Positions 6,311 through 30,622 are shown, counted from the first letter of the stretch. The stretch is DNA of 33,016 bases from an uncultured archaeon (GCA_964611445.1 CAZSYZ010000004.1:1-33016), one strand, 5' to 3'. Made by a program: numbers and translations. Notes: generated by a model not told the origin, from the letters alone.

Positions 6311-6922
6311 ATGATTGTAGAAAAAGTCCTAGGTTCGAAATCAAAAATATCCATACTCAGAATATTCCACGGTCATCCAAAAAAAGAGTTTTGCCTGGAG
6401 GATATGAGGAAGATTCTAAAACGTTCAACCGGAACGATCCATCCGCCACTTTCCGAACTATCCGATTCGGGAATCCTCAATGCGAGGCGTATAGGCCGCA
6501 CGACTTTGTACAAATTGAACGAAGACCATCCTTTCGTGATTGCTTTCAGAAATATATTCAGGACAGAAAACGACTTCATGAGAAAAGCCGCAAAGGATTT
6601 TGTCAAAAAAATGCCCAAGGAAGGTATAATTTCGGTGATACTCTTCGGTTCTGTCGCTAGAGACGAGTCCGTGGCCGGAAGCGATGTAGACCTGCTGGTG
6701 ATATATTCCAAAAAACGAAAGAATGTTGAGGATAGTGTGAGCAGAATAGCGGAGGATTATTTGAAGAATGGTATACACATTTCTCCTGTATTTTACTCGC
6801 GTACGGAAATTGTTAACATGGAAAGAAAATACAACAGCTTTTTGATAAGGGTTCAGGATGAAGGGAATGTTCTTTATGGGATTCCGATAAGGAGCATTTT
6901 GCATGGCAAGAAACGTGAATAA
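6311..6922 (+). CDS. Winged-helix + minimal nucleotidyltransferase (MNT) domain protein, antitoxin-type partner of HEPN
   Basis: N-terminal wHTH-like region (SILRIFHGHPKKEFCLEDMRKIL..GILNARRIGRTTLYKL). Pol-beta type NTase signature ILFGSVARDESVAGSDVDLLVIY. Overlaps the downstream HEPN gene by 20 nt. Confidence 0.85.
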   Translation: MIVEKVLGSKSKISILRIFHGHPKKEFCLEDMRKILKRSTGTIHPPLSELSDSGILNARRIGRTTLYKLNEDHPFVIAFRNIFRTENDFMRKAAKDFVKKMPKEGIISVILFGSVARDESVAGSDVDLLVIYSKKRKNVEDSVSRIAEDYLKNGIHISPVFYSRTEIVNMERKYNSFLIRVQDEGNVLYGIPIRSILHGKKRE

Positions 6923-7289
6923 AGTCGAAGCTGGAAATTACCTGAACAAGGCCTGTGAATTTCTTGATGAAGCGAGAGACGCGATGCTCAAGTCACGCTT
7001 CACAGCTGCCGCCTTCAACTCAATACAGGCGATAATCAACGCGAACGACGCCTTGACGATAGCTGTCAGCGGCATAAGGGCATCAAAGGATCACAGGGAA
7101 GCTGTCAGGACGCACACGGAGACCGTCAGTGTTATGGGAGACAGTTCGGGTAAACAGATTCTCGTAAAGGCATTGAATCTCAGGTCAGAAATAGGTTATT
7201 CAGGAAGGCCCGCCTCTAAAGCGCAAGCTGACGCGCTTCTGAAGGACGCTGTCAGGTTCATTGAGTGGGTCAAAAGATACGCCGAATAG
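6903..7289 (+). CDS. HEPN domain protein (toxin-type partner of MNT)
   Basis: All-helical 128 aa protein with Rx4H motif RASKDH. It is translationally coupled to the NTase gene, the classic MNT-HEPN pair layout. Confidence 0.8.
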   Translation: MARNVNKVEAGNYLNKACEFLDEARDAMLKSRFTAAAFNSIQAIINANDALTIAVSGIRASKDHREAVRTHTETVSVMGDSSGKQILVKALNLRSEIGYSGRPASKAQADALLKDAVRFIEWVKRYAE

Positions 7290-8081: not shown

Positions 8082-8663
8082 TTACTTCTTCAGCACCTCG
8101 GCTATCTTCATGCCGAGGTTCTCGCACGTCTCTATGCCGATCTTGTCGTCTTCCGGCCTGCTTCCGCGCGGGACCCATGCTATGCCTCCGAAATGGGCGG
8201 TGTCCTTGTCGGCCACGGTTATCATCTCGTGCAGGTGCATCCAGTTCATTATCTGCTGGCATACGAGTTCCTGCCCGCCGTTCCTGCTCGCGCCGACCGC
8301 TATGGCCCCGCCTACCGCCTTGCTGAGCATCCTGCCGTTCCTTCTGAGCGGGAAAGTCCTCTCGAAGAAATCCTTCAGCCTTCCGCTGACGAGCCCGAAA
8401 TAAACGGGGCTTGCCACTATCAGCGCGTCGGCGCCGGCCATCTTCCCGTATATTGCCTGCATGTCATCCTTCTGGCTGCATTCGAACCTCGTCTTGCAGA
8501 GGTCGCATGCGGTGCAGGGCTTTATGTCCTTGTCCCAGAGCGTGACCGCTTCCGTTTCAATTCCTTCCTTTTCGACAGCATCTAATGCCTTCCTGAGGAA
8601 GAACAGCGTCGTGCTTTCCTTCCTGTGCGAGCCGCATATTCCTAACACTTTCATGGCAACCAT
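8082..8663 (-). CDS. isf: Iron-sulfur flavoprotein / NADPH-dependent FMN reductase family
   Basis: Flavodoxin-like N-terminus MKVLGICGSHRK and compact cysteine cluster CTACDLCKTRFEC (Cx2Cx2Cx5C), typical of archaeal Isf. The start could instead be the second ATG at 8654. Confidence 0.85.
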   Translation of the reverse strand: MVAMKVLGICGSHRKESTTLFFLRKALDAVEKEGIETEAVTLWDKDIKPCTACDLCKTRFECSQKDDMQAIYGKMAGADALIVASPVYFGLVSGRLKDFFERTFPLRRNGRMLSKAVGGAIAVGASRNGGQELVCQQIMNWMHLHEMITVADKDTAHFGGIAWVPRGSRPEDDKIGIETCENLGMKIAEVLKK

Positions 8664-8681
8664 CTGATGAGCCCGAAGGGA

Positions 8682-8800
8682 TTTTCAGAACCGCGCGGAA
8701 GCGTACACCCTTTCATTGACGCTTTTGCGCTTATCTGCGCACCCGCGTCAGCGTACTTTCCGCGAACGCTTTTGCATGTTTACTTATGCAAAAGGGTTCA
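8682..8800 (-). other. tRNA intron 2 (119 nt, non-canonical position 59/60 in the T-loop)
   Basis: The T-stem is followed by a 3 nt bulge (AA|U), then a 4 bp helix UUCG/UGAA (one GU), then a 3 nt bulge (AA|U), then outer helix GAACC/GGUUC. The interior has further hairpins (UUUUGCAU..AUGCAAAA, GCGC-AGAUAA-GCGC, CGCGGAA..UUCCGCG). The exact boundary is ambiguous by 1-3 nt because of sequence redundancy. Confidence 0.65.
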
Positions 8801-8822
8801 TTCGAACCCTCAACCTGCCGGT

Positions 8823-8864
8823 ATCTTCCCACGCTTTTACTCAAGCTTTTTCTAAAAGCTTGGT
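8823..8864 (-). other. tRNA intron 1 (42 nt, canonical position 37/38)
   Basis: The anticodon stem is followed by a 3 nt bulge (AU|A), then a 4 bp helix CUUC/GAAG, then a 3 nt bulge (GG|A), then outer helix CCA/UGG. The intron also contains hairpin AGCUUUU-AGA-AAAAGCU. Confidence 0.75.
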
Positions 8865-8925
8865 CCGAAGCCGGCCGCAATATCCAGGTTATGCTACGGG
8901 CCCACATGATAAAATAAGCGAATTG

Positions 8926-8934
8926 AAATAAAAA
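8926..8934 (-). promoter_or_regulatory. TATA-like box for the tRNA-Arg gene
   Basis: The minus strand reads TTTTTATTT, 23-31 nt upstream of tRNA position 1. This is the usual archaeal TATA spacing. Confidence 0.45.
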
Positions 8935-9053
8935 GCTCCCTTAGTTTCTGGAGCTCCCTTTAGGGACACTATTCCCTTAATAAAGCCTTAAGTCAATTAT
9001 ATTTGTTATTGTTCAATTTCTGGGAGAATGGGCAATACCGGAGAGGAAAGAAA

Positions 9054-9647: not shown

Positions 9648-9712
9648 TCAAGGATACACCCTGCTTATGGTCCGCGGGAATGTTACTCAGTCCGCTGTTC
9701 GGGTGTCCGTCT
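9648..9712 (-). pseudogene. Displaced, decaying copy of the asnS 3' end
   Basis: The minus strand reads D*VTFPRTISRVYP* against the live tail DCIAFPRTISRVYP*. In-frame TGA at 9689-9687 replaces TGC. Contains the 31 nt identical core 9650-9680. It lies 3 nt from the stop of the convergent 9456-9644 ORF. Confidence 0.75.
9650..9680. repeat. Direct repeat core, copy B (asnS tail remnant)
   Basis: AAGGATACACCCTGCTTATGGTCCGCGGGAA is identical to 10779-10809 by manual alignment. Confidence 0.9.
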
Positions 9713-9735: not shown

Positions 9736-9924
9736 TCACTTCTTTTCAAGTATGTTGCGCCTTTTCTCTACTGCCGCAGCAAGGGCCTCTATCTCCTTCT
9801 CGTAGTATTCGGCGAGGCCTATGTCGCCTGATTCCTTCGCGGTTTCAAGCTTCTTCCTGTGTATTTCTATCTGCTTTTTCAGGGATTCAATCCCTTTCAG
9901 CAGCCTTTTCTTTCTTTTCGGCAT
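9736..9924 (-). CDS. Small coiled-coil protein (62 aa)
   Basis: MPKRKKRLLKGIESLKKQIEIHRKKLE.. is Lys/Glu-rich with heptad character. Overlaps the 3' end of the upstream NTase gene by 38 nt in another frame. Confidence 0.4.
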   Translation of the reverse strand: MPKRKKRLLKGIESLKKQIEIHRKKLETAKESGDIGLAEYYEKEIEALAAAVEKRRNILEKK

Positions 9925-10693
9925 CTTTCAGCAGCTCCTCAAACAGGCCAATAGCCTTGGCGATGGTCTGCCCGTCGAATTCACACCTCTTCGGTTTTCT
10001 TCCATCCCTTACCCCCCTGTAGCGGTCTATGAGCTTAATAGAATCGCCCTTTGTTATCCCTTTCTTTTTCAGCGACTCTTCCAGTATCTTATGGGAGTAG
10101 TTTCTCTTTTCTGTGATGCATTTTATGAGAAGCATCTCCTTTATGCGCATTAAGATGGGATATACGAGGTCGCCTTGGTTTCCACCGGTTTCATACAGGC
10201 TTCTTATGACATTGAGGGACGAACGCGCGAGCCCCAGCCTCTCCCTGAACCCCCTTCCATTCTTCAGCGGCCTGAGTTCGGAAATGAAGCTTTCATTGAA
10301 CAGTATCCTGGATCCTTCTATGGTGTCTCTCATTATGATGTCATTTTCTGCCGCATTCATCAGCTCCTGCCTCTCCATCACCCTTATGTCATAATTCATG
10401 TCTTTCAGCTCCTTTGGAATTTTCATGCTTTTTGCATGTGCGTCCGTGACGACTATTACGTCTATGTCCGACCCCTCAGTCTGCTCGTTTCTCGCATAAG
10501 AACCGTACAGCAGGATGCTTACGACATGTTTCATGTTTTCCGCCAGCGCGAGCGGAAGGTCCTTCTCCGGTTCTGCCGGTCTTGACAGGAGTCTTACCTC
10601 TGCCTGTCCGCCAATCCACGAGGAAGGGACATACACGCCGCCTGAATTCCCGTACTTTTTTACAGTTTTCGTCACGACTTCTGGTGAAATCAT
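9887..10693 (-). CDS. AbrB/SpoVT-like DNA-binding domain fused to a minimal nucleotidyltransferase domain and a C-terminal helical (HEPN-like?) domain
   Basis: N-terminus VKKYGNSGGVYVPSSWIG is AbrB/MazE-like. NTase signature LLYGSYARNEQTEGSDIDVIVV. The helical C-terminal half has only an Rx3H (RNYSH), so HEPN assignment is tentative. Confidence 0.8.
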   Translation of the reverse strand: MISPEVVTKTVKKYGNSGGVYVPSSWIGGQAEVRLLSRPAEPEKDLPLALAENMKHVVSILLYGSYARNEQTEGSDIDVIVVTDAHAKSMKIPKELKDMNYDIRVMERQELMNAAENDIIMRDTIEGSRILFNESFISELRPLKNGRGFRERLGLARSSLNVIRSLYETGGNQGDLVYPILMRIKEMLLIKCITEKRNYSHKILEESLKKKGITKGDSIKLIDRYRGVRDGRKPKRCEFDGQTIAKAIGLFEELLKDAEKKEKAAERD

Positions 10694-10776: not shown

Positions 10777-12060
10777 CTAAGGATACACCCTGCTTATGGT
10801 CCGCGGGAACGCTATGCAGTCCCTTATGTGGTCCACGCTGCATATCCACTGGGTAAGCCTCTCGACGCCGAGCCCGAAGCCCGCGTGCGGGACCGAACCG
10901 AACTTCCTGACGTCCATGTACCAGCCGTAGTTCGCGGGGTCGGCGCCTTCCCTCTTCAGGTTCGCCAGAATCTTCTTCGGGTCAACTTCCCTTGCGGAGC
11001 CTCCTATCAGTTCGCCGCCGGACTCGCCCGGAGCTATGAGGTCCGCGTTGAGGACGGTCTTTTTGTCTTTCGGGTTCTCCAGCATGTAGAAGGGCCTCGC
11101 CTCCTTGGGCCAGTTGGTTATGAAGAACGGCTTCCTGAAGTGCTCCGAGAGCGCCCTGAGCTGCAGGTCCGTCACGTCGTCGCCCCATTTCATCCTGACG
11201 TCCTTCTTCCTCATCATTTCGGTCAGCTCCCTGTACGTTATCCTTCTGAACGGAGGCTTGACACCCGAAAGCATCTTCACGTCCGCGCCCAGCTCCTGCA
11301 GCTCCTTTTTGTGCTTCTTCAGACACGCCTGCACTACGTGCGATACCAGCTCCTCCTGGAGCTTCAGGGAGTCCTCGTGGTCAATCCATGCGGCCTCGGC
11401 CTCCGCGTGCCAGTACTCCGCGAGGTGGTGCCTCGTCCTGCTCTTCTCGGACCTGAAGCTCGGCGCTATGCAGTATATGTTCTCGAGGGACGCTATGAGA
11501 GCTTCGGCGTGCAGCTGCCACGACTGCGTCAGGTAGGCCTTCTCTCCGAAGTACCTCATCTCGAACAGCGTGGAGCCTCCCTCACAGGCCATCTTGGTTA
11601 TCGAGGGCGACTGTATCTCGAAGAAGCCACGGGACCTGAAGAACTCATGTATGGCGCCGAGAATGGTCGACCTGACCTTGAATATCTTCAGCAGTTTCTG
11701 GCTCCTCACCCACAGGTGCCTGTTGTCCAGCAGCAGTTCGGGGCTCTGCTGCTCCTTTATGGGGAAGTCTTCTGCAAACCCGACGACCCTGAAATCGGTA
11801 ACATGAACCTCGTAGCCTCCGGGGGCCCGCTCGTCCTTCCTCACATTGCCCGTGAGTTCCACTGATGACTCGATCAGCGCCTTCTGCGCGTCCTTGAAGC
11901 CTTTCACGCCCTCCTTCACCACGCACTGGACTATGCCCGTGGAATCCCTGAGAACCACGAAGGAAATGTCCTTCCCGGACCTGGTCCTGTATATCCATCC
12001 CTTCAGGAGCACTTCCCTCCCGGCCTTCTTTCCGATATCGGCTATGACAGTCCTTTCCAT
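10777..12060 (-). CDS. asnS: Asparaginyl-tRNA synthetase (class IIb)
   Basis: N-terminal OB fold. LLLDNRHLWVRS. Motif 2 FRSEKSRTRHHLAEYWHAEAE. YGWYMDVRKFGSVPHAGFGLGVERL motif 3 region. About 427 aa. AspRS cannot be fully excluded without alignment. Confidence 0.8.
   Translation of the reverse strand: MERTVIADIGKKAGREVLLKGWIYRTRSGKDISFVVLRDSTGIVQCVVKEGVKGFKDAQKALIESSVELTGNVRKDERAPGGYEVHVTDFRVVGFAEDFPIKEQQSPELLLDNRHLWVRSQKLLKIFKVRSTILGAIHEFFRSRGFFEIQSPSITKMACEGGSTLFEMRYFGEKAYLTQSWQLHAEALIASLENIYCIAPSFRSEKSRTRHHLAEYWHAEAEAAWIDHEDSLKLQEELVSHVVQACLKKHKKELQELGADVKMLSGVKPPFRRITYRELTEMMRKKDVRMKWGDDVTDLQLRALSEHFRKPFFITNWPKEARPFYMLENPKDKKTVLNADLIAPGESGGELIGGSAREVDPKKILANLKREGADPANYGWYMDVRKFGSVPHAGFGLGVERLTQWICSVDHIRDCIAFPRTISRVYP
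10779..10809. repeat. Direct repeat core, copy A (live asnS tail)
   Basis: Identical to 9650-9680. Decayed similarity continues for roughly 30 more nt into the gene. Confidence 0.9.
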
Positions 12061-24336: not shown

Positions 24337-24795
24337 ATGACATATACAGAAATAAAGGAAATGAATGGGAAAAAATACTATTACAGAGTCAGAAGCGTCA
24401 GAAAGGGTAAAAAATTCAAAAAGGAAAGGATTTACCTGGGGGTAAATTTATCCGGCCAAAAATTATCCAAAAAAGAAAATCAGGCGGATAAAAAATTATT
24501 GGAAGATAAGGTAAACGAAGGTTTAAAGGTGATAAAACCCCAAATAATTAGAATCTTAAGGAAAAATAAGATAAAAAGGGCCGGGATATTCGGTTCTTAT
24601 GCCAGAGGAGAGCAGAAAAAAAACAGTGATATTGACATCTTGATACAACCCACGAAAGATACAGGGTTTGGTTTTGCTGGTATTGAGATTGAACTGGAAA
24701 AAACGCTGAAGAAAAAGGTCGATTTAGTAAGCTATAACGGCATAAGCCCGTATTTGAAAGATCAGATTCTAAGCCAGGAAGTGAGAATAATATGA
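24337..24795 (+). CDS. mntA: MntA-type minimal nucleotidyltransferase antitoxin
   Basis: GIFGSYARGEQKKNSDIDILIQ signature. 4 nt overlap with the hepT start. Confidence 0.85.
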   Translation: MTYTEIKEMNGKKYYYRVRSVRKGKKFKKERIYLGVNLSGQKLSKKENQADKKLLEDKVNEGLKVIKPQIIRILRKNKIKRAGIFGSYARGEQKKNSDIDILIQPTKDTGFGFAGIEIELEKTLKKKVDLVSYNGISPYLKDQILSQEVRII

Positions 24796-25142
24796 ATGAA
24801 AAAAGGGATTTCATTTTTATCAAGCATATTCTGGAAAGCGTAAATGCAATAAATGATTTTTCCAAGGGAATCGACAAGGAAGAATTGACCTCTAGCAGAT
24901 TGAAGCAAAGTGCAATAGTCAGGGAAATAGAGATAATAGGAGAAGCTGCCAAGAATATTTCCAAGAAAACCAAAAACAGATACAGTAATATTGAATGGAA
25001 GGAAATTGCCGGAACCAGAGATAAAATGATTCATCATTATTTCGGGGTTGATTTGGATATCGTTTTAGCCATAATAAAAAAAGATATTCCAGAACTGAAA
25101 AAAGAAATATTGAAAATTGAAAAGGACTTTGAAAATAAATGA
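24792..25142 (+). CDS. hepT: HepT (DUF86) HEPN-domain toxin
   Basis: ILESV..I...., EIIGEAAKNIS and the Rx4HxY motif RDKMIHHY. Confidence 0.9.
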   Translation: MNEKRDFIFIKHILESVNAINDFSKGIDKEELTSSRLKQSAIVREIEIIGEAAKNISKKTKNRYSNIEWKEIAGTRDKMIHHYFGVDLDIVLAIIKKDIPELKKEILKIEKDFENK

Positions 25143-26070: not shown

Positions 26071-27348
26071 TCATGAGGCAGGCGTTTCAAGGAGCCACTT
26101 CCAGAGCGGTATGTATTTCACCTTTTTTCCCGAGATTTCTTCCGCGTCATCCTTCTCTTCCGTTATGATAAGAAGATTCTCGCATCCCAGTTCGTCTGAG
26201 GCGTTCAGAAGCGCCCTCGTTTCCCTGTCTTTCGTTGCCGGGTCCGAGATGTCATGGCAGACCTGTATTAGCTCCATTATTTCCAGCCCGTGCTTGACAA
26301 CGAAGTCGACCTCCTGATGTCGCTGGTTTTTCCAGTAATATATCTCGGTCAATGGGTCTGATGACATCCTTCTGAGAAGGTCGATGGCCACTACATTCTC
26401 ATAGAGGCGGCCATAATCGCTTGAAAACCTTCCGGAAAGGCTCTTTATGACCGATGTGTCAATGACGTACACTTTCCTGTTGCTTTTTTCTATTTCAACC
26501 GGTTTCCTGGAAATTCTCTTCAGAATAAAGATGAGATAAGCTTCCTCGAGGTAAGATACGTAGTTCTTGACCGTATGCTCGCTTTTCATGTTGAACTGGC
26601 GTTTCAGCTTGTTGTAGCTTATGCTCCTCCCAGGATTCGAAAGAAGTGTTATCGCAATCTCCCGGAAGGTCTTCTTGTACGATATCCCGTACCTGCCGAT
26701 TATGTCCCTCTCAAGGATCTTCGTGTACAGTTCCCTGGCATATACTCCGGGCATTTCATGTTCGGTGACGACCTCGGGGAATCCACCAGCGTCTATGTAC
26801 TTTGAGAGTTCCCGTTTCATGACCGCTTTCCCTCTCGTCGTGCCGCAGTCATCGCTGATGTTCATCGCATTCAGGTATTCCCTGAAACTGAAAGGGTACA
26901 GTTCCATCGACATGTGCCTTCCCGTCAGGTGCGTGGACAGTTCCCTGCTGAGAAGCTTGGAGTTGCTCCCGGTTATCACGAGGTTCATGCCCATTCTCTT
27001 GAGCCGGTTCGCGAAGAGCTCCCATTTTTCGAGGTTCTGTATCTCGTCGAGGAGTATGAATTCAATATCCTTGCCGTAAATTTCATAGAAAGACGAAAGG
27101 ATGTCGTCCGTGTCAATGTCTGCGATGCGCTCGTCGTCAAAATTCATGTATGCGAACTTCCTGTCTTTCATGAGCATCCGCGCGAACACGGATTTCCCGC
27201 ACCTCCTTACGCCGGTTATGACCTTTATCAGGCCGGACCGCATGAAATCCTCATACAGGCTTTCCGACTCCCTCTTTATCAGGCGTTTTCTTTTGACGAA
27301 CTCTTCCATCTCCTGCCTTTGATCCCTCAGGACGTCTGTAAGCTTCAT
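26071..27348 (-). CDS. AAA+ ATPase, COG1373 / AAA_14 + DUF4143 type
   Basis: Walker A ITGVRRCGKS. Walker B FILLDEIQ. C-terminal ..EVDFVV.. restriction-endonuclease-like region typical of DUF4143. Confidence 0.85.
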   Translation of the reverse strand: MKLTDVLRDQRQEMEEFVKRKRLIKRESESLYEDFMRSGLIKVITGVRRCGKSVFARMLMKDRKFAYMNFDDERIADIDTDDILSSFYEIYGKDIEFILLDEIQNLEKWELFANRLKRMGMNLVITGSNSKLLSRELSTHLTGRHMSMELYPFSFREYLNAMNISDDCGTTRGKAVMKRELSKYIDAGGFPEVVTEHEMPGVYARELYTKILERDIIGRYGISYKKTFREIAITLLSNPGRSISYNKLKRQFNMKSEHTVKNYVSYLEEAYLIFILKRISRKPVEIEKSNRKVYVIDTSVIKSLSGRFSSDYGRLYENVVAIDLLRRMSSDPLTEIYYWKNQRHQEVDFVVKHGLEIMELIQVCHDISDPATKDRETRALLNASDELGCENLLIITEEKDDAEEISGKKVKYIPLWKWLLETPAS

Positions 27349-27531: not shown

Positions 27532-27583
27532 GATGTGCGATGGCGATAATTATTTAAGTATATTTAATTATAATAGCATTATT

Positions 27584-28879
27584 ATGAAATATTTTGAAAG
27601 AAATCTGCTGGCGGAAGTGAAAAAATGGACGGGCAGAAGGGAGATTATACTCATAAAGGGTCCCAGGCAGAGCGGGAAGACAACCCTTCTGGAGATGCTG
27701 AAGGAGTGGCTCGTCAGCGGGAAGGCGGTGAAGCCGGGGAACATATCATTCGTGACGTTCGAAGACAGGGAGGAGCTGGAGAAGTTCTCGGAAGACCCAC
27801 TGAGCTTCGTGAAAAGGCGCGTGAGCGGGAAGGGCAGGCACTATCTCTTCATAGACGAAGCGCAGTACTGCAGGGATGCCGGGCAGAAGCTCAAGCTGGT
27901 CTACGATACGTATGACAACGTGAAGCTCTTTGTCACGGGGTCCTCTTCGCTCGAACTCACGTCGGAAACATCTAAATACCTCGTCGGGAGGGTTTTCTCG
28001 TTCGAGCTTCACCCGTTCAGCTTCCACGAGTTCCTGAACGCCCGCGACAAGAAGCTCGCCGCACTTTTCCTCGAGGTCAGGTCGGACGTAGTCCGCCTCA
28101 TCCTGGAAGGAAAGGATTTCAGGGCGAGGGGTAAGGACATCCTGGTCCCCGAACTCCTGAAAGAGTTTGGCGAATACGTAACCTACGGGGGATATCCGGA
28201 GGTCGTGAAGTCTGACTCGGACGAAGAAAAGGTCATGGTGTTAAAGAACATCTTCAACACATACCTGGAAAAGGACATAATATCATACCTCCAGATTACC
28301 GATACCGGCAAGTTCAGGAAGCTAGTGTCGGTCCTGTCGGCGATTACCGGGGGCCTCGTGTCATACGACAAGCTCGTGAAGTCGTGCGGCGGTTACTTCA
28401 AGGAAATCACCGGCCTCCTGGACGTGCTCGAACAGACCTATGTCGTGAAGTTTCTGAGGCCGTTCCATAAGAACATGGTGACCGAGCTCAGAAAGAGCCC
28501 GAAGGTGTATTTCCACGACTGCGGGATAAGGAATTACGCGATAAGCAATTTCAATGCGCTTGACATAAGGGAGGACGCAGGGAAACTGGCAGAAAATTTC
28601 GTCCTCAACGAGGTCTCTTCCTACTCCGAAAACATGTTCGTCAATTTCTGGAGGACAACAGCGAAGGCGGAAGTCGACGTGATCCTTACGGTCGGCGAAA
28701 GGGTCGTGCCGATCGAAGTGAAGTTCGAGAACATGAAAGAAGGTGAAATCACCAGAAGCTTTCTGAGCTTCATCGAAACGTACGGCCCTGAATTCGCGAT
28801 TGTCGCGACAAGGGATTTCTGGGGCGAGCGCAGGGTAGGGAAGACCGTCGTGAAGTTCATCCCGATAGTATATTTATGA
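27584..28879 (+). CDS. AAA+ ATPase, COG1373 / AAA_14 + DUF4143 type (paralog of 26071-27348)
   Basis: ATG 27584 (MKYFERNLL) is preceded by TATTTAAGTATATTTAATTATAATA. Walker A IKGPRQSGKTT. Walker B LFIDEAQ. C-terminal ..AEVDVIL.. region. Confidence 0.85.
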   Translation: MKYFERNLLAEVKKWTGRREIILIKGPRQSGKTTLLEMLKEWLVSGKAVKPGNISFVTFEDREELEKFSEDPLSFVKRRVSGKGRHYLFIDEAQYCRDAGQKLKLVYDTYDNVKLFVTGSSSLELTSETSKYLVGRVFSFELHPFSFHEFLNARDKKLAALFLEVRSDVVRLILEGKDFRARGKDILVPELLKEFGEYVTYGGYPEVVKSDSDEEKVMVLKNIFNTYLEKDIISYLQITDTGKFRKLVSVLSAITGGLVSYDKLVKSCGGYFKEITGLLDVLEQTYVVKFLRPFHKNMVTELRKSPKVYFHDCGIRNYAISNFNALDIREDAGKLAENFVLNEVSSYSENMFVNFWRTTAKAEVDVILTVGERVVPIEVKFENMKEGEITRSFLSFIETYGPEFAIVATRDFWGERRVGKTVVKFIPIVYL

Positions 28880-29109
28880 CGCCAGGGAGGACGGCGGCCG
28901 CAAGGCCCCGATTTTCTTAAAAAGTGCTTACGAAGACATCATTTATGATACCTTTCTCTGCAGGAAACAGGAAATGGGTGCTTCTTGGAGCTTTTGGGAG
29001 AGCCGGACCGTCTAAATATGAAAATAATACGTTTCGCTATCCTTATCAAAATTGATAAGCATATGCAAACGAAATATTGTTTTATAAAGGAGCCGCGCGA
29101 AATATTGTC

Positions 29110-29871
29110 ATGGGCGGGAAGGACGCGACGGGAAACGCGAACGCGTGCTATGGGGAAAACGGGAAAAGGACGAACAAGATAGCACTCCTCAAGGAGCTTG
29201 GGACATACCCCTTCTTCACGCTGAACGACTTCGTGAGGATTGCAGGCAGGCCGCCCGCCTACTGCTGGACATACCTTTCGAGGCTGAAAAGGGAGGGACT
29301 CGTTTTCAGCATAGAGAGGGGAAAGTACACAGTCCACGAAGACCCGCTCGTGTTTTCCACAAGCATTTCGCCGCCCTCGTACATAAGCTTCTGGACCGCG
29401 ATGAGGTTCCACGGCCTGACCGAGCAGCTCCCCTCGGACGTCATGGTGGCCTCGCCGCGCTCCAAGAAGACCATAGCCTTCAGCGGGACAAAGATAAGGT
29501 TCTTCAGGACCAAGGAGATGTGGGGATTTGCCAAGCAGAGGTACTCCGGCTTTGACATATTCATGGCGGACAAGGAAAAGTGCGTGATAGATTCGCTGCT
29601 CCTAAAAAACGTCCCCTTCGACGAAATAGCCAAAGCCGTCAGGGACGGCGGCTTCGGCCGGGAAATGGCGGATGCGGCCCTCAGGTGCGGCAGCATGTCG
29701 GTGATGAAGAGGCTCGGGTACATGATGGAGAAATCCGGGCTCGTCACGGGAGAAATGGAAAAGGGACTTGACGGGAATTATGTGCCCTTCGACTGGAACC
29801 GGCCAGCGAAGGGAAGCAAATGCAGGAAGTGGAGGATAATAGAAAACAGGCGGTTGGATGATATCGACTGA
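29110..29871 (+). CDS. abiEi: AbiEi-like antitoxin / transcriptional regulator (COG5340 type)
   Basis: wHTH-like FTLNDFVRIAG..YLSRLKREGLVFSIERGKY, then SYISFWTAMRFHGLTEQLP. ATG 29110 lies about 25 nt after TTTTATAAAGG. Overlaps abiEii by 14 nt. Confidence 0.8.
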   Translation: MGGKDATGNANACYGENGKRTNKIALLKELGTYPFFTLNDFVRIAGRPPAYCWTYLSRLKREGLVFSIERGKYTVHEDPLVFSTSISPPSYISFWTAMRFHGLTEQLPSDVMVASPRSKKTIAFSGTKIRFFRTKEMWGFAKQRYSGFDIFMADKEKCVIDSLLLKNVPFDEIAKAVRDGGFGREMADAALRCGSMSVMKRLGYMMEKSGLVTGEMEKGLDGNYVPFDWNRPAKGSKCRKWRIIENRRLDDID

Positions 29872-30622
29872 GGAGCTTTCGAGGGTTGCGAAAATAAAGG
29901 GCATAAGGAACAGGTGGAGCGCCGAGAAGGACTACCTGCTTGAGATAGCCCTGCTCTCCATCTCCAGGAGCACGAAGGACGAGCTCGTCTTCAAGGGCGG
30001 CACGTGCATGAGCAAGTTCTACAAGCTCGACAGGTTCAGCGAGGACATAGACTTTTCGGCCCGCAGGGACATAGACGTTGACAGGGTGCTTGAAAAAATA
30101 GCCTCAGACATGAGGTCTTTTGGCGTCCTGGCCGGAATAATGGAGAGGGAGAAGAAACACGACTCCGTCATCGCGAGGGTAAGGTGCAGGGGGCCGCTGT
30201 ACAGCGGAAACCCGCAATCGCTTTCGAGCATAAAGGTCGACGTCAATCTCAAGTCCGGGACGGACGCCGAGCCTAAACTCTTGAGGTACAGTCCGCTGTA
30301 TTCCGAAATCCCGGCATTCTCCCTCTTGGTAATGGACGAAAGGGAGATACTCGCCGAGAAGGTCCGTGCAGTTATGTCGCGGGGCAAGGCGAGGGATGTC
30401 TACGACCTGCGGTTCCTGCTCGAGAAGGGCGTCCCCTTCGACGCGGGGCTCGTCGGGAAGAAGCTGGGCTTTTACGGGGAGAAGTGGGACCCGGGAAAGT
30501 TCAAGAGCGGACTCCTGGGGAAAAAGCCCTTCTGGAAAACCGAGCTGTCAGGTCTTGTCGCCTCGGTCCCTGACTTTGAAGAGACGAGGAAGGTCATACT
30601 TTCGAAGGTGCGGGGCGCGTAG
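29858..30622 (+). CDS. abiEii: AbiEii/AbiGii (DUF1814) nucleotidyltransferase toxin
   Basis: LVFKGGTCMSKFYKLDRFSEDIDFS signature, then ..REILAEKVRAV..RGKARDVYDL. Confidence 0.85.
   Translation: MISTEELSRVAKIKGIRNRWSAEKDYLLEIALLSISRSTKDELVFKGGTCMSKFYKLDRFSEDIDFSARRDIDVDRVLEKIASDMRSFGVLAGIMEREKKHDSVIARVRCRGPLYSGNPQSLSSIKVDVNLKSGTDAEPKLLRYSPLYSEIPAFSLLVMDEREILAEKVRAVMSRGKARDVYDLRFLLEKGVPFDAGLVGKKLGFYGEKWDPGKFKSGLLGKKPFWKTELSGLVASVPDFEETRKVILSKVRGA

Follow-up and report, generated by a model that had tools for sequence, protein, structure and literature searches.

The tRNA-Arg(UCG) gene described here lies on the minus strand (8903-8668) of the window, a 33,016-nt stretch of DNA from an uncultured archaeon (GCA_964611445.1, CAZSYZ010000004.1:1-33016), and appears to be interrupted by two bulge-helix-bulge (BHB) introns, one of them in the T loop. 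Among the closest described systems, the euryarchaeal tRNA-Trp intron at position 37/38 carries C/D and C′/D′ boxes and directs methylation of its own tRNA, and classical archaeal rRNA introns are commonly long, with genes for homing endonucleases. The introns known from archaea are BHB introns, except for a few group II introns and the group I introns described in the paper that makes this statement (PMC6125680). BHB introns are established in D and T loops (PMC3241643), tRNAs with multiple introns have been described (PMC3241643, PMC4033280), and in Thermoproteales similar introns are spread among tRNAs (PMC4033280). Shielding of tRNA attachment sites from integrating elements has been proposed as a rationale for such introns (PMC3293823), and DPANN lineages with an extra-loop EndA show more disruption of tRNA genes (PMC5829648).

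The present case resembles that of Thermoproteales in having more than one BHB intron per tRNA, at non-canonical sites, and in the occurrence of similar introns across tRNA species, which in Thermoproteales has been read as spread. In contrast to the Thermoproteales introns as a review describes them, the family found here in Aenigmatarchaeota lies mostly at one site, 59/60, builds its BHB on universal T-loop bases, and has a covarying structured core of ~60 nt, copies of which are also present in insertions of 23S rRNA and in the leaders and trailers of tRNAs. Many non-canonical or multiple introns are likewise a feature of DPANN archaea whose disrupted tRNAs have been studied together with EndA (epsilon2 of ARMAN-2; alpha4 with an L3 loop; PMC5829648, PMC3239211). 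The incomplete DPANN tRNA sets reported in one of these studies, which point to undetected disrupted genes (PMC5829648), fit a gene that ARAGORN and Rfam miss, but Aenigmatarchaeota were not among the genomes analyzed there and no shared intron core was described.

At tRNA-Thr(GGU) of Caldiarchaeum subterraneum (PMC3293823), intron presence varies among close relatives, as it does at the Arg(UCG) locus, and the complete gene is preceded by a fragment of the tRNA 5′ part, an arrangement with an analogue in two contigs (L077, L078) of the Aenigmatarchaeota metagenome-assembled genome (MAG) AUK155. In Caldiarchaeum the gain is linked to a recombinase-bearing element of 1.8 kb; the window has neither a tRNA fragment nor an adjoining recombinase, and the relatives compared for it are more distant (~70% identity of the neighboring protein). 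Integration at the window tRNA on the Caldiarchaeum model was rejected, as no tRNA fragment repeat was present and Pfam searches found no integrase domain in the open reading frames (ORFs) neighboring the tRNA and no recombinase adjoining it. A literature search of incomplete coverage returned no account of Aenigmatarchaeota tRNA introns, or of a covarying core common to tRNA and rRNA insertions. The gene is a further case of the established tRNAs with BHB introns; a moderate claim of novelty is made for the shared intron core.

The tRNA-Arg(UCG) locus and its orthologues

Positions 8903-8668 very probably constitute a functional tRNA-Arg(UCG) gene of an Aenigmatarchaeota archaeon, probably single-copy and spliced at BHB motifs, with a T-loop intron that belongs to a phylum-wide family. 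On the minus strand the locus reads, 5′ to 3′, GGGCCCGUAGCAUAACCUGGAUAUUGCGGCCGGCUUCGG, a 42-nt insert, ACCGGCAGGUUGAGGGUUCGAA, a 119-nt insert and UCCCUUCGGGCUCA. When the three exons (39, 22 and 14 nt) were joined, ARAGORN, one of the checks proposed in an earlier sequence-only reading of this DNA, accepted the product as a 75-nt tRNA-Arg(tcg) with a regular cloverleaf. Exon 1 (8865-8903, minus strand, 39 nt, tRNA positions 1-37) supplies the 5′ strand of the acceptor stem, the D arm, the 5′ strand of the anticodon stem and the loop CUUCGG with the anticodon UCG, and is identical or near-identical in orthologues. Intron 1 (8823-8864, minus strand, 42 nt) is an ordinary canonical anticodon-loop intron at the 37/38 site, and its limits are the same in ARAGORN intron mode. 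Exon 2 (8801-8822, minus strand, 22 nt, positions 38-59) supplies the 3′ strand of the anticodon stem, the variable loop AGGUU, the T-stem 5′ strand GAGGG and the T-loop bases UUCGAA. Intron 2 (8682-8800, minus strand, 119 nt) occupies the 59/60 site in the T loop, and exon 3 (8668-8681, minus strand, 14 nt, positions 60-73) contributes U60, the T-stem 3′ strand CCCUU, the acceptor 3′ strand CGGGCUC and the discriminator A73; CCA is not encoded.

The joined exons form a ~75-nt cloverleaf with a 7-bp acceptor stem and D, anticodon and T arms, and U8, G18G19, U33 and a T loop of the form UUCRANY were read directly from the sequence. Pairing of all seven acceptor and all five T-stem positions, with one G-U in each stem, was verified by script as the sequence-only reading had stated. 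Its statement that no contiguous cloverleaf exists was likewise upheld: ARAGORN found zero tRNAs in the raw 33-kb window, and the unspliced locus gave nothing in Rfam at gathering score and only chance-level matches at E ≤ 10 between 8400 and 9200, as is expected because of the T-loop intron. With intron 2 alone removed, ARAGORN intron mode gave the same tRNA and the same 42-nt intron. ORFs of 58-71 amino acids overlap the locus, and the gene they overlap is well supported as a tRNA.

Both introns show strict hBHBh′ geometry, with 3-nt bulges on opposite strands, a 4-bp helix between them and flanking helices, and a script check found every splice-site pairing and bulge proposed for the two sites. 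At 37/38 the motif consists of GCCGG, the central helix CUUC (8870-8867):GAAG (8828-8825), the bulges GG↓A and AU↓A (arrows mark splice sites) and the outer helix CCA (8863-8861):UGG (8831-8829). At 59/60 it consists of the T stem GAGGG, the central helix UUCG (8806-8803):UGAA (8687-8684), the bulges A8802 A8801↓U8800 and A8683 A8682↓U8681, and the outer helix GAACC (8799-8795):GGUUC (8692-8688). With cuts at 2↓1 in all four bulges, the predicted product is colinear with L069 and L070, two orthologues that lack introns.

Relatives were fetched through the neighboring FMN-reductase gene, which lies 3′ of the tRNA in every orthologous locus whose downstream sequence was read, and genome and metagenome collections were then scanned with an exon-1 pattern; taxon assignments of relatives are the labels on their database records. 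This one orthologous locus occurs in all four states, with no intron, an anticodon-loop intron only, a T-loop intron only, or both. Introns are absent at both sites from L069/L071 and L070; L066, L067 and L068 (the same as L001, L002 and L004) have a 37/38 intron of 31-32 nt with the same geometry and none at 59/60; L072 and L102 have no 37/38 intron and 59/60 introns of 72 and 103 nt, respectively; and the window and L065 share introns of 42 and 119 nt. In L121, which has a 77-nt intron at 59/60, the contig stops inside the variable loop, so that the anticodon region is outside the contig.

L069 (75 nt) differs from the predicted product at 3 of 75 positions, which include a compensatory change of A12-U23 to U12-A23, plus one D-loop base. 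Against the Rfam tRNA model RF00005, L069 and L070 scored 61.8 and 60.1 bits, and the orthologues with only the anticodon-loop intron 48-50 bits. By comparison of sequences, these syntenic orthologues settle the splice junctions. The exons of L068 and L070 are identical and their anticodon-loop intron states differ; exon similarity thus does not track intron state, and therefore introns have been gained or lost repeatedly. The proposal of a tRNA-Arg(UCG) gene with BHB introns at 37/38 and 59/60 was sustained by the exon assembly, by orthologues with no or one intron, and by ~25 further T-loop introns of the same geometry. Mutations that break the BHB motifs in relatives, named beforehand as a refuting outcome, were the opposite of what was seen: the BHB helices covary and remain paired.

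The T-loop intron family

The 59/60 intron of L072 aligns with the first ~60 nt of window intron 2, and a pattern made from the shared part matched in three contigs of AUK155. Six bacterial matches of this first pattern were taken as chance, and a stricter pattern gave archaeal MAGs only. An alignment of the five copies (78% identity) showed compensatory changes in a hairpin; the covariance model built from them, R1, revealed two further copies within the AUK155 23S rRNA gene. The strict pattern (CCCTTT-N7-GTAAAC-N5-AAAGCG-N4-5-CGGAAA, 24 fixed bases) was run over a genome collection of 596 Gb and gave 60 matches in 53 stretches, all from archaeal MAGs (13 labeled Aenigmat(arch)aeota and 8 labeled 'uncultured archaeon'), with up to 12 copies in a single MAG; by our estimate ~0.01 chance matches were expected. 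The same pattern gave 0 matches in viral_contigs, and a viral origin of the module was set aside on that result. A second covariance model, R2, gave 84 matches at E ≤ 1e-3 in 425 kb of module-bearing loci, a density biased upward as these loci were picked for holding at least one copy, and no match in Arg(UCG) loci that lack the T-loop intron; E-values of the custom models R1 and R2 are rough.

The core module (~60 nt) consists of a long covarying hairpin with a NNGUAAAC loop (GGCAAGC in the L072 variant), followed by AAAGCG and CGGAAA. Among 58 distinct copies, the hairpin (alignment A3, columns 4-17 with 26-40) is 94% paired and shows double changes at 8 of 13 pairs; its basal pair (column 4 with column 40) is G-C in 29, A-U in 10 and U-A in 9 copies, and one stem pair is A-U in 26 and U-A in 26. 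None of 500 shuffles reached the observed covariation, and slid controls did not come close. CCCTTT, GTAAAC, AAAGCG and CGGAAA were fixed by the search pattern, and therefore their invariance proves nothing; the covariation indicates that the core of the family is under structural selection. A module pseudoknot (AGCGUUC with GAACGCU crossing GCGG with CCGC) was rejected, being 74% paired with little covariation and no better than a nested alternative.

About 30 distinct copies lie directly after GGTTCRAN and are 59/60 introns. Their 3′ exons were located by T-stem complementarity and then scored for BHB geometry, and ~25 of the 30 fit a T stem, a UUCR:YGRR helix, two 3-nt bulges and a 5-bp intron-internal helix; the window intron fits with 4/4 central-helix pairs and 5/5 GAACC:GGUUC pairs. 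The intron-internal helix varies between GAACC:GGUUC, GCACC:GGUGC and AAACC:GGUUU, with pair counts of G-C 16, A-U 5 and G-U 3 at one position and A-U 23 and C-G 4 at another, and R57 covaries with its partner (A-U 12, G-C 7, G-U 4). Removal of the T-loop intron gave ARAGORN tRNAs of many types, with Pro(CGG), Pro(UGG), Val(CAC) and Arg(UCG) as clean cases that contain no further intron; the anticodons that ARAGORN assigned to members with further introns (for example 'Phe aaa' and 'Cys aca') look wrong and were not used. One tRNA in AUK155 (L078 1951-2099) has a 44-nt 59/60 intron (2042-2085) and an anticodon region that by hand does not form a standard arm and probably holds one or more further non-canonical introns.

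Copies of the module also occur elsewhere in stable-RNA genes: as D-loop introns in two tRNA-Leu genes (L105, L125), as an apparent anticodon-loop intron (L117, by eye), in a tRNA 5′ leader (L084), in 3′ trailers (L089, L119, L131) and in tandem arrays (L074, L083, L118, L126). A 15-nt tRNA 5′ fragment, GGGCCCGTAGCTCAG, is joined directly to a module copy in L077 (5092-5078, minus strand) and L078 (1689-1703, plus strand), 260-330 nt upstream of a complete tRNA that starts with the identical 15 nt, and resembles a 5′ exon left behind by an allele with a D-loop intron. Conserved flanks, GUGUGUGGAACUUCCUCACC ... CCACCUUUCCGGCUCGCGCAAA, surround the module in a non-coding stretch found in two MAGs (L074 4100-4640, minus strand; L090 near 5410, minus strand), and in L074 several degenerate modules come after it in tandem; the stretch is possibly an unrecognized structured RNA gene with module insertions.

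In AUK155 the 3′ part of the 23S gene (L074 1-2280) takes 2280 nt for 1164 model positions. By Rfam alignment the module lies in insertions of 111, 51 and 72 nt in the domain V region, at large-subunit model positions ~2457, ~2571 and ~2629, and in our reading one of these has a legible BHB (GGGCG-U-GCAG-CA↓U-AACC ... GGUU-CUGU-AA↓G-CGCCC) with a 3′ end resembling that of window intron 2. These three short insertions, at least one of them with a readable BHB, resemble the known rRNA introns with BHB motifs, but at 51-111 nt they are ORF-free and have a core in common with tRNA introns. The same 23S gene has an insertion of ~670 nt (~360-1030) with an ORF, in which a LAGLIDADG-type motif, GFVDGEGCF, was noted by eye. 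Taken together, the T-loop intron belongs to an apparently undescribed family of structured mini-introns that in this phylum is distributed over numerous tRNA genes and also found in a gene for 23S rRNA.

Within window intron 2 the family module was placed at 8737-8802 (minus strand) by R1 (87.6 bits) and R2 (76.6 bits, E = 2e-18) and, with filters off, is the sole significant R2 match in the window. The window was among the training sequences, and its own R1 and R2 scores are therefore partly by construction; the copies found by pattern scan are the real test. The module hairpin (8799-8764) has the apical loop AAGUAAAC (8785-8778) and a conserved C.C mismatch and is followed by AAAGCG and then CGGAAAGUACGCUGACGC. 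T-loop introns of 69 nt are present in L104 and L120; L104, from the same MAG as L001, the closest labeled relative, matches the window intron at 24 of its last 25 nt. By this comparison, window intron 2 corresponds to the basic form of 69 nt, enlarged by 50 nt (8700-8749, minus strand) inserted between direct GUACGCU repeats (8756-8750 and 8706-8700). In the predicted fold this expansion pairs back onto the module to form a long hairpin, and intron 2 alone folds at -50.3 kcal/mol (z = -4.79 vs shuffles). The unusual length of intron 2 is that of an expanded standard cassette and gives no ground for assuming a separate gene. Another hairpin that recurs, CCAGGAGCAACAUNAANNAUCCUGG, lies between the core and the 3′ end of several T-loop introns (L086, L102 at the 6456 copy, L109), and T-loop introns seem to be built from optional sub-modules. 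In intron 1 (8823-8864) a hairpin precedes AAAAGCGU and GGGAAG, an order with a loose likeness to that of the module (hairpin, AAAGCGUU, CGGAAAG). Intron 1 and the second half of intron 2 were rejected as module copies, as neither gave a significant R2 match with filters off and the shared AAAAGCGU was considered insufficient.

Splicing, spread and competing explanations

By analogy with the established archaeal pathway, a precursor of ~236 nt would be transcribed from an AT-rich box that lies ~30 nt upstream, the FMN-reductase gene probably sharing the transcript, and the precursor fold would put each intron-exon boundary in a 3-nt bulge beside a 4-bp helix. EndA would cut both motifs, an RtcB-type ligase would join the three exons into the 75-nt tRNA, and CCA would be added after ligation. 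In the T-loop cassette the central helix would form between the near-universal U54-U55-C56-R57 and a YGRR tract at the intron 3′ end, and the outer helices would be the T stem itself and the intron-supplied GAACC:GGUUC. With T-loop bases and a T stem shared by tRNAs and a helix brought by the intron, the cassette would therefore fit the T loop of any tRNA; such use of the universal T loop would explain repeated hits at one non-canonical site.

Tentatively, and at somewhat less than even confidence, the module may represent a self-contained class of non-coding BHB mini-introns that carries its own outer helix, can settle in any T loop and, with small changes at its 3′ end, also in D loops, anticodon loops and 23S rRNA, and has reached the majority of genes for stable RNAs in a single DPANN phylum. 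The family most likely consists of largely selfish introns that are mostly inherited vertically and occasionally gained or lost. The core may in addition aid folding or splicing, or protect the tRNA 3′ half from the integration of mobile elements.

Several observations weigh against this account of the gene and its intron family. When the 236-nt precursor was folded with the cloverleaf and both BHB motifs enforced, the energy was -91.3 kcal/mol vs a free minimum of -95.0, a cost of only 3.7 kcal/mol, which in itself speaks for the BHB fold; it arises because of a competing hairpin, and the unconstrained fold pairs GAACCCU at the 5′ end of intron 2 with AGGGUUC of the T-arm 5′ half and does not form the BHB. 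Covariation across the family also links the 5′ GAAC to a GUUC inside the intron (columns 4 and 40 of A3), and therefore the splicing-competent fold competes with at least one other conserved fold. Pfam searches found no EndA or RtcB gene in the 33-kb window, to which the survey for a second tRNA-Arg(UCG) copy was also confined, so that such a copy may exist elsewhere in the genome. No transposition event or machinery was seen, and mobility of the family is deduced from its distribution.

In terms of predicted structure, two mutually exclusive folds of the intron 5′ GAAC appear to be maintained. That one 5′ strand has two separately covarying partners, the internal GUUC and the terminal GGUUC, suggests either a switch between a closed-module and a splice-ready form, or a role of the excised RNA of its own. 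An unlikely rival is that the T-loop intron would be mainly a vehicle for a trans-acting small RNA: the module would be freed from introns, leaders and trailers of pre-tRNA or pre-rRNA by EndA, RNase P or RNase Z, perhaps as a stable or circular RNA, and might bind a protein or serve as a guide or chaperone. Such a role does not conflict with the tRNA and its splicing and competes only with the selfish part of the account. It gains from the module hairpin, which compensatory changes maintain and whose loop looks invariant and C.C mismatch is conserved, from an intron 2 that folds far better than its shuffles, and from the position of non-intron copies, which are always in discarded parts of stable-RNA precursors (leader, trailers, arrays). 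In addition, copies are diverged within one genome and orthologous copies are near-identical between genomes, which makes a recent burst less likely and favors retention over a long time. Set against these points, the invariance of GTAAAC, AAAGCG and CGGAAA is partly circular, the structural conservation could equally serve BHB presentation, and no guide architecture was found.

Intron 2 may have a function of its own, for which the sequence-only reading judged it large enough; candidate functional motifs in it were considered and rejected. Like the tRNA-Trp C/D intron it is >100 nt long and structured, with a conserved internal RNA element, but it lies at 59/60, has no C box, and its CUGA is not kept in most copies (CUGC, CUUC or CUAC instead), and no Rfam family matched at E ≤ 10. 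A kink-turn or K-loop reading of CGCGGAAAGUACGCUGACGCG failed, as in our reading no register places the G.A pairs correctly, and the core does not fit a hammerhead-like reading of CUGAYG...GAAA, which likewise has no Rfam match. Group I and II self-splicing introns were dismissed on size, 42 and 119 nt vs a catalytic core of at least ~200 nt, and on the lack of Rfam matches.

It is very improbable that the locus is a dead tRNA gene, its T loop hit by a repeat element and left unspliced while another gene supplies tRNA-Arg(UCG). The insert is a multicopy repeat, standard tools do not call the gene, and the analysis was restricted to the 33-kb window, all of which would agree with such a history. 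Yet the exons are intact, with only the compensatory pair and one D-loop base distinguishing the orthologue; the BHB is as exact as in ~25 other tRNAs of many types, which could hardly all be pseudogenes; the locus is syntenic with intact orthologous genes; and the window contains neither a fragment of the tRNA nor a repeat of its 5′ or 3′ part at ≤3 mismatches. An assembly artefact in which the repeat was joined chimerically into a tRNA gene can be practically dismissed: the module is repetitive and another repeat close by marks the end of the related contig L065, but L065, from the independent Logan assembly of run SRR9700688, has the identical 236 nt and flanks, which argues against an artefact, and the same architecture occurs in many MAGs from different projects.

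Lineage, flanking genes and implications

Synteny with labeled relatives and the ~70% identity of the neighboring protein point, by inference, to Aenigmatarchaeota (DPANN) as the lineage of the window. The sequence-only reading had named Thermoproteales and a few other archaeal lineages as the main known sources of such introns; the lineage here is not Thermoproteales, the closest syntenic MAGs being labeled Candidatus Aenigmatarchaeota.

The FMN-reductase-like gene (PF03358, 8082-8663, minus strand, Pfam E = 3e-34) lies downstream of the tRNA, was the synteny anchor, and follows the tRNA in L001, L002, L004, L069, L070 and L072; its true start is likely the ATG at 8654, 13 nt past the tRNA 3′ end. 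In the window the spacer between the two genes has no T-run, and the spacers of L069 and L068 are longer and have one. Because no T-run separates the two genes, they are probably co-transcribed, and the arrangement suggests that the mRNA is freed by tRNA 3′ processing. Upstream, a transcription factor B recognition element (BRE)/TATA-like box, GCTTTTTATTT (8926-8936, minus strand, -33 to -23 from the tRNA 5′ end), is a probable archaeal promoter box: the same box lies at the same distance in L069 and L070, and similar AT-rich boxes are present in L066, L067, L068 and L072.

A direct repeat of 44 nt (9650-9693 and 10779-10822, 91% identical) duplicates, at a distance of 1129 nt downstream, the 3′ end of an Asp/Asn-type tRNA synthetase gene (10777-12060, minus strand), and a nucleotidyltransferase gene (9887-10693, PF01909) lies between the repeat copies. 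The synthetase stop is just ~60-70 nt from the tRNA in relatives, and the Logan contig L065 begins exactly at the second repeat copy; the repeat-flanked segment looks like an inserted cassette with a target duplication. The window also contains three toxin-antitoxin-like pairs (nucleotidyltransferase and HEPN at 6311-7289, nucleotidyltransferase and HepT at 24337-25142, AbiEi and AbiEii at 29077-30622), two AAA_14/DUF4143 ATPases (26071-27348 and 27533-28879) and a stretch of low G+C content at ~21-25 kb (0.38-0.44).

The tRNA-Arg(UCG) locus, together with a family of >80 detectable copies, offers a concrete system in which gain, loss and spread of protein-spliced introns can be followed, and the core, in which two helices compete, may be an RNA that governs how it is presented to the endonuclease. 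In Aenigmatarchaeota, tRNA genes may be missed in the same way as this one by the dozen in each genome, and missed tRNA genes of this kind would distort completeness estimates and inferences of 'missing' tRNAs in DPANN genomes.

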